A program made the position numbers and the translations under genes. A DNA stretch of 64,000 nucleotides from Flaccisagitta enflata (Eukaryota), in NCBI GenBank assembly GCA_965153355.1, contig OZ231126.1:45818001-45882000 (forward strand), given 5' to 3'. The notes under the pieces are model-generated. The model saw only the letters and a program-made list of their open reading frames with translations. It searched no databases and was not told where the DNA came from. Positions 35,859 to 57,640 of the stretch are shown in pieces; positions within the stretch are counted from its first letter, which is position 1; every line of letters starts with the position of its first letter.

Positions 35859-38800
35859 ATGGACCAAGCAGGTATGAAGTGTCGTATGAGCCATAATCTA
35901 CATCAAGGCGCTATCAGTGTCTGATTATTTTCTCTGCTCATGATCTGTGACGATGTGGACAATACCTTATTTTCACCCGGTGTGGTTGTCACTGACAGCT
36001 TAATTTGATTCACGCAACAAATTTTCCCTAAAGCCGCTCACACAAACGCGACGCCAAGATTAGAGAAGCTTCCGCGGACAAGACTGCTTCTGACCGAGCG
36101 TCAAATGTTGGATAATGACTATACAACAAAAGCAGAGGGCAATCACGTATCCACTTCGCCGGGGGGCCACTCCCCGGCAACAGACGCGAGTCCCATGTTC
36201 GCCATCGATTGCGAAATGTGCCGGACCGGACCGACGGCGGACGGACGGACGGACGGACGGACGGACAGACGGACGGACGGACGGACGTCCGGGGAGCTGA
36301 CATCCATCGTGGTCGTCGATGAGGATTTGAACTGCGTCTATCAGACGTTGGTGAAACCTTTGAAGCCTATCATGGACTATCGAACCCCATGGAGCGGGAT
36401 CACGGAATCGATGCTGCAAAATGTCACAACAACTTTAAAGGATGTTCAGAGGTAAATATTTTGTTTAAAGTAACACTAAGGTGGCTTTCTTGTGTTTATT
36501 TTATGATCGGTTGATATTAGGGGTTTTCGCATTGGGAAAATTATCGAGAAATTACATAGGGAATATCTAGATAACACGCCCAATGCAAAAACCCCTTAAA
36601 TCAATATACATTTCAGAGACATCCAGGCGCTTTTGCCAGCCGATGCCATACTCGTCGGCCATTCTTTGTGTTTTGACTTGCGTGCGATGAAAATGTTCCA
36701 TCCTCACATCATTGACACGGCACTTATTCCAACCTACATGAACACGCGAGGAAGAAGCCGGAAACTGAAGGACTTGGCTGCCATTTATCTTGGCAAGAAC
36801 CTCCAGGTGATTCGCGCCGTCTCTTTGACGGCCGACTTGCAGTTTTACATGAACATGGAAAAACCGTATTTTTTAGTCGCGTGAACGCGACTCTAGAAGC
36901 CGCTATGTCGGTCGGTCTGTTGGTCGGTCGGTCGGTCCGTCACATTTTTGAAATATAGCTTTTGTCTTCATTTTAAAGGTACTTAAGGGTACTCTAGAGT
37001 ACTTAAGGGTACTTTAGAGTACTTAAAGGTGCTTTAGGGTACTTAAGGATTAGAGTGGTCACTATTTGACTTTTTCATCTTGGTCTCTACGGCATGAACA
37101 TGGGCCATCCACTACATCCAAGTAGCATTTCTCTCAAAGGTTTTCCCTTTTTAAGCATCTGAAAACCCTGCGGAGTAAGATATGCAGATGGAGGTGGAGG
37201 GTTTTTTTTTTTTTTTTTTGGCAAGCTTCTTGGTTATGCTTATCCGTTTGTATGCTTGTGCAAACAGCCGGCAAGGGTAAAATATCATGTAATGCGTTGA
37301 TAGGATAAGTAATATTGGCTGGGTACACGTCACTACAAACTTAACTAAACCAGAACCCCCCCTTCCCCCAATAAAACGGTGATATTTGAAGGAATGGCAT
37401 CTTTATTTCATTTGTTTTTTTTCATTGGATTTGCGTGTGTGTGTGTGTGTGTGTGTGTGTGTGTGTGTGTGTGTGTGTGTGTGTGTGTGTGTGTGTGTGT
37501 GTGTGTGTGTGTGTGTGTGTGTGTATAGAGGATTCGCACTTCAGCGTCTAGACCGTGTATGTAATAGTTAAGAGTGGAAGTTACTTGACTGTAGTAGAGT
37601 GGGTATATTGTATTGAGTGCAAATTGTTATACAACTTTGAAGATTGATATTGACTTACAACAAGGCCGGATACACGGCCACCAGTTGCGGACGGGTGGGC
37701 AGGGGCGGAAATGCGCGTTTTCCTACTTTTCGACTCGATGGTTACAGACGGACGGACGGACGGACGGACGGACGGACGGACGGACGGACGGACGGACGGA
37801 CGGACGGACGGACGGACGGACGGACGGACGGATGGACAGACGGACGGACGGACAAAGCCTCTTATAGAGTTGCGTGTCCGCAACTAAAAACGCGAATTTT
37901 TGATTGAGACGTCGACCTTTTTCAGGCTAAGAAAGATTAGGAATGAGCAAAGGAGAAGAAACAGAGGAAAAGAGAAAGAGATGGAGAGGAAGAGGAAGAA
38001 GGAGGATTGACTAAAAGGGAGAGACTTCAATAATTTCACTTCAATTGGTGTGTGAGTGTGTGTGTGGGGGGGGGATGAGTGTGTGTCTCTCTCTCTCTCT
38101 CTCTCTCTCTCTCTCTCTCTCTCTCTCTCTCTCTCTCTCTCTCTCTCTCTCTCTCTCTCTCTCTCTCTCTCTCTCTCTCTCCGCAATTTATTCACACCAC
38201 TTAGTCAGGTTCGTTAAAGACAATGTACGCCTTTAGCTTTGATGAGATGCTTAGTATCTATGTTGGTCTGAACCTCAGGACCTATGAACGTATGAAGCTA
38301 CCTTAGAAAAGTTCTACGTGAATACATCCAATTTTATTAGTCGGGAAACGCGATGATCTACACTCAATCACAACTGCAGCACCCGAAATAAAAATTTTCA
38401 CATCTTTCAACTTGACCTTCATTAACTAACGAGCCAACTGACCGATGGATGGACCAACAGATTCATGTAAAAAAAAATCCCAGGTTTACGATTTTACGAT
38501 AGCCGCAACCAAGCAACATTTTAATCCTTTGACGGCAGTTTTTACCCATGGTGGCCCTTTATGGGCAGCGGCCCCAAAGGGTCGATGTCCTGTAGAACAC
38601 AGGAGGGAATTTCCAGATCTCCGTCCTTCCATCCGTCCCCCCCCATTGACCATCAAGGCCTTAAATTAGCCCTCCCAAATCTCGAATTAGTCCCCCAGGC
38701 TTCAAATCAGCCCCCCCCATGCTTCAAATCTGCCCTTCAGACCTCAAATCTGCCCTCCAAAGTGATCCAAACCTTCAATCAGCCCTTTAAACATCAAATC

Positions 38801-56600: not shown

Positions 56601-57640
56601 GAAAGAATCCTCGCCGAGACCAACTTTGGAAAAGCTTCCGAGGACAACATTGCTTTTGTCCCAATGGCAAATGTTGGTCAATGAATATCCGACCCAAGCA
56701 TCCAGCTGCCGCGTATCCACATCACCGAAAGGCCACTCTCCAGCGACAGATCTGAGCCCCATGTTTGCCATTGATTGCGAGATGTGCTGGACGGGGCCCA
56801 CCAGGGACTACTCGGAGTTGACTTCTATCGTCGTCGTCGATGAGGATTTAAAGTGCGTCTATGAGACGCTCGTGAAACCTCCGAAGCCAATCGTCGACTA
56901 TCGAACCCCTTGGAGCGGAATCACGAAATCAATGCTGGGAGACGTCAAAACGACGTTGGAAAATGTTCAGAGGTAGTTAACCTTTTCCTCATTAATAGTC
57001 CTTCCAGATAACTTCTGCTCTCTTGAACAGACCTTCACTAAACTAAATAGAATACAATCCTGTCTTTTCATCTTCGCTGTTTCCAAATCTTTTATCCAAA
57101 AGATCACGCCGTTCCATCATCGCCGATAGCCAGCTGTCTCATCATTGCCTCTACACAATTTCACTAGCCAAAACATGCCAAGTATCAAAACAAACCTGCT
57201 GTATATTTTCTACCTTCCATCCACCCTCCAGGGCGATCCAGGACCTTCTGCCAGCCGACGCCATACTTGTTGGACACTCACTGAAATTTGATTTGCGTGC
57301 CATGAAAATGTTCCATCCTCACATCATTGACACGGCACTCATTCCATCCTACATGAGAAACGGAAGAAGCCGAAAACTTAAGGATTTGGCCACCATCTAT
57401 CTTAGAAAGACACTCAAGGTGATGTCTCATTGAAATGAGCCTCTGTATAGGGCGCATGTATGCTTGAAATCGATGCTTTACATATTCCAATATGTCGTTT
57501 ATTCAATTGTCCATTTTCTTTTCTTGCCTAAGTGACCATTTTTTTAAATCCTGTAGACCTCATCTCGCAAGGCCTTGGATGACGCGGTGGCGACCATGCA
57601 ACTTGTCAAACTAAAGCTGAGATCCTCCCGAAGGGTATGA
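53636..57640 (+). CDS. REX1/REXO5-like DEDD 3'-5' exonuclease, paralog B
   Basis: Exons 53636-53987, 56591-56972, 57232-57418 and 57557-57640 join in frame (334 aa), with the same intron positions and phases as paralog A. Motifs [34 protein letters not shown]. Confidence 0.88.
54145..56503. mobile_element. Foldback-type non-autonomous DNA transposon in intron 1 of exonuclease B
   Basis: Arms 54145-55480 and 55503-56503 are inverted in their unique blocks: ccagtaaaggcgg / ccgcctttactgg, aactcatttt..caaaattga / tcaattttgg..aaaatgagtt, ccagaa.gtgtaaaaaagtgccct / agggcacttttgacaccttctg, ttttcgatttttttcccaat / attgggaaaaaaatcgaaaa. Their microsatellite order is also mirrored. Confidence 0.85.

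Follow-up and report, generated by a model that had tools for sequence, protein, structure and literature searches.

Two tandem REXO5-like genes of Flaccisagitta enflata that lack the ExoIII histidine and the flanking AlkP domain

In exonucleases of the DEDDh type, the histidine of the ExoIII motif is carried by a flexible loop, and its role is to activate the attacking water (PMC3439924, PMC10899777; papers are cited here by PMC number, each for the part of its text that was available). Mutation of this residue abolishes the activity of SDN1 (PMC6123492) and of ISG20L2 (PMC10899777), and the Rexo2 mutant H194A, which has residual activity, served for RNA-binding measurements (PMC6521605). In REXO5, the flanks of the nuclease domain form an AlkP domain, and RNA recognition motifs (RRMs) are confined to vertebrate Rexo5 (PMC12129344); the flanks of yeast Rex1 are needed for substrate binding and processing (PMC8925975). 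Departures from this plan are already known: mouse Rexo5 has a His-to-Arg change in ExoIII, and Marchantia possesses a domain-only Rex1 paralog, A0A2R6WS50 (PMC12129344). Here we describe two tandem genes, A and B, found in a 64,000-nt window of the genome of Flaccisagitta enflata (G000:C1:45818001-45882000), the gene content of which is that of an animal. Both encode a REXO5-like nuclease domain with Gln or Arg at the position of the ExoIII histidine. The genome searched, G000, comprises 794 Mb in 9 contigs (C1, C4, C5 and C8 below); all positions given without a contig are those of the window.

Genes A and B are arranged head to tail, both on the + strand (Table 1). Their spliced models, assembled by script, are 234 and 334 aa long, have open frames and contain exclusively GT-AG introns, and both introns within the nuclease domain share position and phase between the two genes; open frames and identical intron positions had also been noted in the first-pass annotation of this stretch, which had been made from the sequence alone. 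Its description of the catalytic centre also holds. The ExoI DCE, the ExoII HSLxFD and the ExoIII Asp are intact in both proteins, the D, E, D and D of each match the reference columns of the DEDD superfamily, and the residue at -5 from the ExoIII Asp, which aligns with the His column of the family homologs, is Gln (CAA) in A and Arg (CGC) in B. The H-x4-D of DEDDh enzymes is thus lacking from both genes, which supports the annotated loss of the general base. DEDDy enzymes carry Y-x3-D in ExoIII; position -4 is Lys in A and B, and the Tyr is absent, as annotated. To count the histidine among homologs, 158 proteins were examined with a pattern that did not require it: all 120 that could be parsed have His at -5, and of the 38 that could not be parsed, inspection by eye showed it in 7, the other 31 being fragments or left uninspected. 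The 123 reference rows of the conserved-column alignment were cut with a His pattern, so that their count of 123/123 is circular and is not used as evidence.

The annotation had further argued that no missed exon could supply the histidine. A profile of the ExoIII segment was run against six-frame open reading frames (ORFs) of positions 36807-64000 and of 10 kb downstream of the window, and no His-bearing alternative last exon was found there: the profile matched only the pair of last exons already known, with E 1e-6 and 7e-4, the next best hit having E 1.7, and it recovered all three control genes at E <= 3e-11. The change extends beyond a single residue. Of the 32 columns conserved at 90% or more, A keeps 28 and B keeps 27, and all losses fall at I136, Q137, G142, H143 and E147, that is, in the His loop or directly before it. 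From the IQ equivalent, itself partly retained, to the Asp, the loop measures 8 residues in A and B versus 10-11 in 107 of the 120 parsed homologs, being remodelled from GHxSxED to a form two residues shorter, xxKALDD. The Gly preceding the His is lost in both, and the Lys, Ala, Leu and Asp that A and B have in common at -4 to -1 occur in 0, 2, 3 and 0 of the 123 reference rows, respectively. The ExoII His and the pocket motif Tyr-x-Thr-x-x-Ser-Gly are retained in both genes.

The REXO5-like DEDDh origin proposed in the annotation is supported by the linker upstream of ExoI, which fits the REXO5 profile, by the identity to the REXO5-like gene of C1 and by the tree, in which REXO1 proteins form their own clade (support 0.981) excluding A and B. 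By sequence, the A/B nuclease domain groups with REXO5 and not with REXO1/Rex3; the tree gives no exact placement of the sister group within Rex1/REXO5. Like REXO5/NEF-sp, yeast Rex1 and plant SDN5, both genes have DCEM in ExoI, DL in ExoII and the upstream linker PRTxLLL..QM..Y. A His-bearing parent, which the annotation had suggested looking for, is present in the genome: full-length REXO5-like genes with the histidine occur at C1:10.08 Mb (GHDPLEDA) and C8:32.65 Mb (GHNPVEDA), and the histidine is present as well in the REXO1-like gene of C5:20.01 Mb (GHDSAEDA). Over the domain, A shares 81% identity with B, and the identity of both to the C1 and C8 genes is 45-49% (47-49% to C1 REXO5). One of their introns matches an intron of C1 REXO5 in position and phase; the intron located three codons before the His site is missing from C1 and C8. 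The C8 gene is itself divergent, with DVE for DCE, GHQI for GHSL and a Ser-rich insertion of about 55 residues before the ExoIII His.

Against a full-length REXO5 profile of 610 positions, A and B cover positions 217-443 only, while C1 and C8 cover both flanks, and no match to profile positions 1-216 or 444-610 (AlkP) was found in the window and 10 kb on each side. The discontinuous AlkP (RYS) domain that flanks the DEDDh domain in Rex1/REXO5 is thus absent from A and B and present in C1 and C8. Given this limited cover, the lack of flanks within 10 kb and the separate REXO1 clade, we regard A and B as AlkP-less derivatives of REXO5. Neither CHORD nor KIX, the mark of REXO1/Rex3, was found upstream of ExoI, where the sequence is REXO5 linker or low-complexity, with no Cys/His pattern and no Pfam match. 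The first-pass annotation had pointed to the lack of RRMs as unusual for REXO5; this was misplaced, since RRMs occur only in vertebrate Rexo5 (PMC12129344) and their absence from A and B is therefore uninformative, the missing domain being AlkP. The nearest solved structures by sequence are SDN1 (PDB 5z9x, E 1.6e-14), ISG20L2 (E 2.8e-13) and ISG20 (E 1.8e-6), all of which, unlike A and B, have the His. Pfam RNase_T on exon 2 of B alone gives E 2e-4, which for this exon taken singly stays under the cut-off, and the ESM Atlas clusters are unnamed or labelled RNase_T only.

Relatives of A and B were found as single-exon gene calls on ENA metagenome contigs. P0009, P0010/P0159-P0161 and P0166 share the signature PWSGIT, and their matches end at the A/B intron positions; over the domain part, identity to A and B is 71-74% for P0009 and P0160 and 64-67% for P0166. 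P0164 is an allele or close ortholog of B, and P0165 likewise of A (Table 1). The acids of ExoI and ExoII are retained in those fragments that span them. In the tree, A, B and the fragments form a clade supported at 0.988, the stem of which measures 0.435; up to the A/B node the path amounts to about 0.62 substitutions per site versus terminal branches of 0.157 and 0.141. By their sequences, these exon fragments from other genomes show A and B to belong to an older subfamily, the internal order of which is unsupported (0.0, 0.49) because two REXO1 proteins were entered twice and the fragments do not overlap. Exon-2 queries retrieved no close full-length protein (best identity 54-56%), and at E <= 1e-30 there were only two matches, both single-exon fragments. 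Exon-3 queries found nothing among longer proteins and three single-exon fragments. JGI metagenome contigs yielded 56 loci, the best with 65% identity over 20 residues or 50% over the full query, and no ExoIII exon of a relative.

Two of the checks proposed in the annotation concerned selection and expression. The ratio of nonsynonymous to synonymous divergence (dN/dS) between A and B, calculated by the Nei-Gojobori method over 158 domain codons, is 0.139 (dN 0.123, dS 0.886, bootstrap 0.08-0.23), indicating purifying selection. Contig X1 of a marine metatranscriptome (158 nt, depth 2.7) matches exon 2 of B with 0 mismatches, and its loose end is the end of B exon 1 (53955-53984), showing that the B transcript is spliced from exon 1 to exon 2. 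The marks of a pseudogene, that is, a broken frame, dN/dS near 1 and lack of a spliced transcript (the latter judged on B only), were not found; with dN/dS of 0.14 and the spliced B contig, A and B do not have the appearance of long-dead pseudogenes. In the polyA run X2, 0 of 14 aligned reads were at least 95% alike, and 9 fell in a repeat at the edge. For the exon-3-like X2 reads, the loose end has 0 matches in G000, and X2 therefore probably comes from another organism. About five X2 reads (<95% alike) on positions 57275-57388 read GHSLSVDLRV, like P0165/P0166, and may come from a subfamily member that is expressed in a related organism.

The first-pass annotation suggested parallel losses in the two genes, which would mean that the histidine was still present at the A/B split, on the grounds that a single step separates CAC from CAA and from CGC, whereas two separate these codons from one another. 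This history, which would be compatible with any function, did not gain support and now appears unlikely. The codon argument saves one synonymous step, which is cheap at a dS of 0.89, whereas the shorter loop, the lost Gly and the Lys-Ala-Leu-Asp are common to A and B, and the stem is about four times as long as either terminal branch; for these reasons, a single ancestral loss of the His followed by drift between Gln and Arg is the most probable course of events suggested by the sequences. Another concern is the last splice junction of both genes, which is predicted from genomic sequence. If an AAG located 15 nt downstream, in frame and common to A and B, were the true acceptor, the Gln and Arg codons would be intronic and the whole His loop deleted. 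The start of the last exon is divergent (A and B are identical at 4 of the first 12 nt and at 49 of the remaining 60; Fisher p 0.0016, with the boundary set post hoc), which fits a freed loop and also a downstream in-frame acceptor, the His being absent either way. However, CAG/TAG acceptors come first, upstream, preceded by pyrimidine tracts, and the three codons before the His site encode Ser/Thr in both genes, as in coding sequence, so that we consider such a model error very improbable. Nor do we think it at all likely that A and B are dying duplicates, crippled by the loss of the His and otherwise relaxed or in very recent decay. The microsatellite in exon 2 of A, the repeat-laden introns and the lack of closely matching X2 reads would agree with decay, but the frames are open at dN/dS of 0.14 and dS of 0.89, the shared loop changes are older than the A/B duplication and constraint therefore persisted afterwards, B is spliced, and the X2 reads are probably those of another organism.

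As to function, it seems about an even bet that A and B are catalytically crippled, metal-dependent binders of RNA 3' ends with little or no turnover. In keeping the metal ligands, the ExoII His and the pocket motif they resemble substrate-trap His mutants, and the Tyr of this motif would correspond to the base-stacking Y272 of Rex1 (PMC8925975). A number of points weigh against this proposal. Retention of all four acids is typical of active enzymes, and the pseudonucleases Exuperantia (Exu) and PXL have lost acidic residues (PMC13659232). When deprived of its flanks, Rex1 is unstable and its binding of substrate is poor (PMC8925975), so that RNA binding by the bare A/B domain is not assured. 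The search for orthologs advised in the annotation succeeded as far as the older subfamily in other genomes is concerned, but none of its fragments (P0009, P0010, P0159-P0161, P0164-P0166) extends to ExoIII and spans the His site. Expression of B is read from one 158-nt contig of depth 2.7, and transcript evidence is confined to B, gene A being outside the stretch compared with the reads; dN/dS averages over the past and is compatible with recent decay; and a 45-nt GGAC microsatellite has been inserted, in frame, into A. Finally, non-canonical DEDDh centres are said to be able to retain activity, and mouse Rexo5 has the His-to-Arg change in ExoIII (PMC12129344). These last two points, as well as the four retained ligands and the Lys at -4, which A and B have in common and which occurs in 0 of 123 references, would also suit slow or specialised exonucleases that trim one substrate, the metals alone, the Lys or the Arg of B activating water or stabilising the transition state. 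We consider this possible but doubtful: His mutants of three DEDDh enzymes, among them SDN1, the nearest homolog with a solved structure, are dead or residually active, NEF-sp activity was shown for the human protein (PMC5558908), the residue at -5 differs between A and B, and both lack the AlkP domain that Rex1 needs.

If A and B are indeed binders with poor or no cleavage, their origin could be pictured as follows. A REXO5/Rex1 gene would have been duplicated in an ancestor of the animal's lineage, and one copy, which carries an intron just before ExoIII absent from the parent, would have lost both AlkP halves. Its His loop would have been rebuilt once, two residues shorter, from GHxSxED to xxKALDD, and a later tandem duplication would have given rise to A and B, in which drift at the freed position led to Gln and Arg, respectively. 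With all four acidic ligands of the metals and the pocket for the nucleotide kept and the water-activating base gone, the proteins would use the two-metal site to bind the 3' end of a single-stranded RNA and would act as a clamp, decoy or adaptor, the trimming being done by the intact REXO5/REXO1 genes. A bolder and rather tentative extension is that the whole lineage has a minimal REXO5 subfamily in which only the catalytic base was deleted and the metals and pocket were selected, yielding natural substrate-traps that shield RNA 3' ends or, otherwise, cutters using Lys for His.

Compared with REXO5/Rex1, A and B differ in lacking the ExoIII His and both AlkP halves, in the loop being two residues shorter and in the extra intron before the His site. 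Mouse Rexo5 belongs to the same family and has the same His-to-Arg change as gene B (PMC12129344), but it is a full-length ortholog with RRMs, whereas A and B are extra truncated paralogs with a rebuilt loop beside His-bearing parents. The Marchantia paralog resembles them as a DEDDh-only copy beside a full-length gene; it is a plant protein, and no loss of its His is mentioned in the available part of the source (PMC12129344). In Exuperantia and PML PXL the nuclease fold is reused for nucleic-acid binding, as proposed here for A and B; these proteins have lost acidic ligands and carry a SAM-like subdomain (PMC13659232), in contrast to A and B, which keep all four acids and in which no extra folded domain was detected. 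A literature search, with most subscription papers and all supplements outside it, found no His-less truncated REXO5 subfamily, nor the combination described here, a truncated subfamily under constraint that has a remodelled loop and exists alongside intact parent genes. Loss of the His is rare in the family (0 of 120 parsed homologs), mouse Rexo5 being the single natural case cited in the part of PMC12129344 available. As natural variants held under purifying selection, and with His-bearing paralogs in their own genome that can serve as controls, genes A and B make it testable what a DEDD domain does with its metals kept and its base lost. Were they to bind but not cut, the pseudonucleases would gain a class that retains its metals, and should they be substrate traps, the route would differ from that of Exuperantia/PXL with its loss of metal ligands; if they cut, alternative chemistry would be demonstrated. 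The scope is narrow, as one invertebrate lineage is concerned.

Table 1. Predicted exons of genes A and B and associated features (positions in the window)
Feature	Positions	Strand	Remarks
Gene A, coding segment 1	35859..35871	+	ATG..GCAG|GT, phase 1; predicted
Gene A, exon 2	36034..36451	+	REXO5-type linker KLPRT.LLL; ExoI DCE 36207-36215
GGAC microsatellite in A exon 2	36233..36287	+	Shortly after ExoI; DGRT repeats; in frame
Gene A, exon 3	36617..36806	+	ExoII HSLCFD 36660-36677; P0165 (allele or ortholog) 94% identical
Gene A, last exon	41394..41477	+	Gln CAA 41403-41405 at His site; ExoIII Asp 41418-41420; stop
Gene B, exon 1	53636..53987	+	117-aa acidic, low-complexity N-terminus; splice to exon 2 in contig X1
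Gene B, exon 2	56591..56972	+	Linker; ExoI DCE 56773-56781; RNase_T E 2e-4
Gene B, exon 3	57232..57418	+	ExoII HSLKFD 57275-57292; P0164 (allele or ortholog) 97% identical
Gene B, last exon	57557..57640	+	TSSRKALDDA; Arg CGC 57566-57568 at His site; ExoIII Asp 57581-57583; stop

The 5' end of gene A is uncertain, as a good acceptor at 35793, upstream of the ATG, is open in the same frame (SWTSASIKRIRTT...). The microsatellite makes exon 2 of A 45 nt longer than its counterpart in B with the frame kept; its interpretation as an intron was ruled out by the lack of a usable GT..AG. The N-terminus of gene B contains a two-copy repeat of about 32 aa and basic clusters, and a search of the genome with it matches only itself; the basic clusters are a possible nuclear localization signal.

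Another tandem pair of exonuclease genes, oligoribonuclease-like and both His-bearing, is located at G000:C5:20984116-20985976, with a near-identical copy of the first gene at C4:85022706; this pair is presumably REXO2/Orn. Upstream of gene A, a multi-exon gene on the + strand (approximately 12500-19860) encodes clusters of C2H2 zinc fingers and a homeodomain (Pfam), with long Ala/Ser/His low-complexity tracts, and resembles ZEB/zfh1. An element that has inverted ends (CAGTAAAGGCGGC...) and is filled with CT/AG tracts occurs in copies at 54146-56502, in intron 1 of B, and at 32428-35220, upstream of A; the arms 32480-32651 and 56278-56449 are 92% complementary, and X2 reads match the end of the element, which is probably a non-autonomous DNA transposon. 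Between A and B, positions 50840-52100 are occupied by a tandem array with a unit of about 35-36 nt (…TCTCCAATGTCTGTCACACAACCC…). On the - strand at 60216-63056, a 751-aa ORF reads like the endonuclease and reverse transcriptase of a long interspersed nuclear element (LINE), and a 194-aa ORF continues it after a break near 60800.

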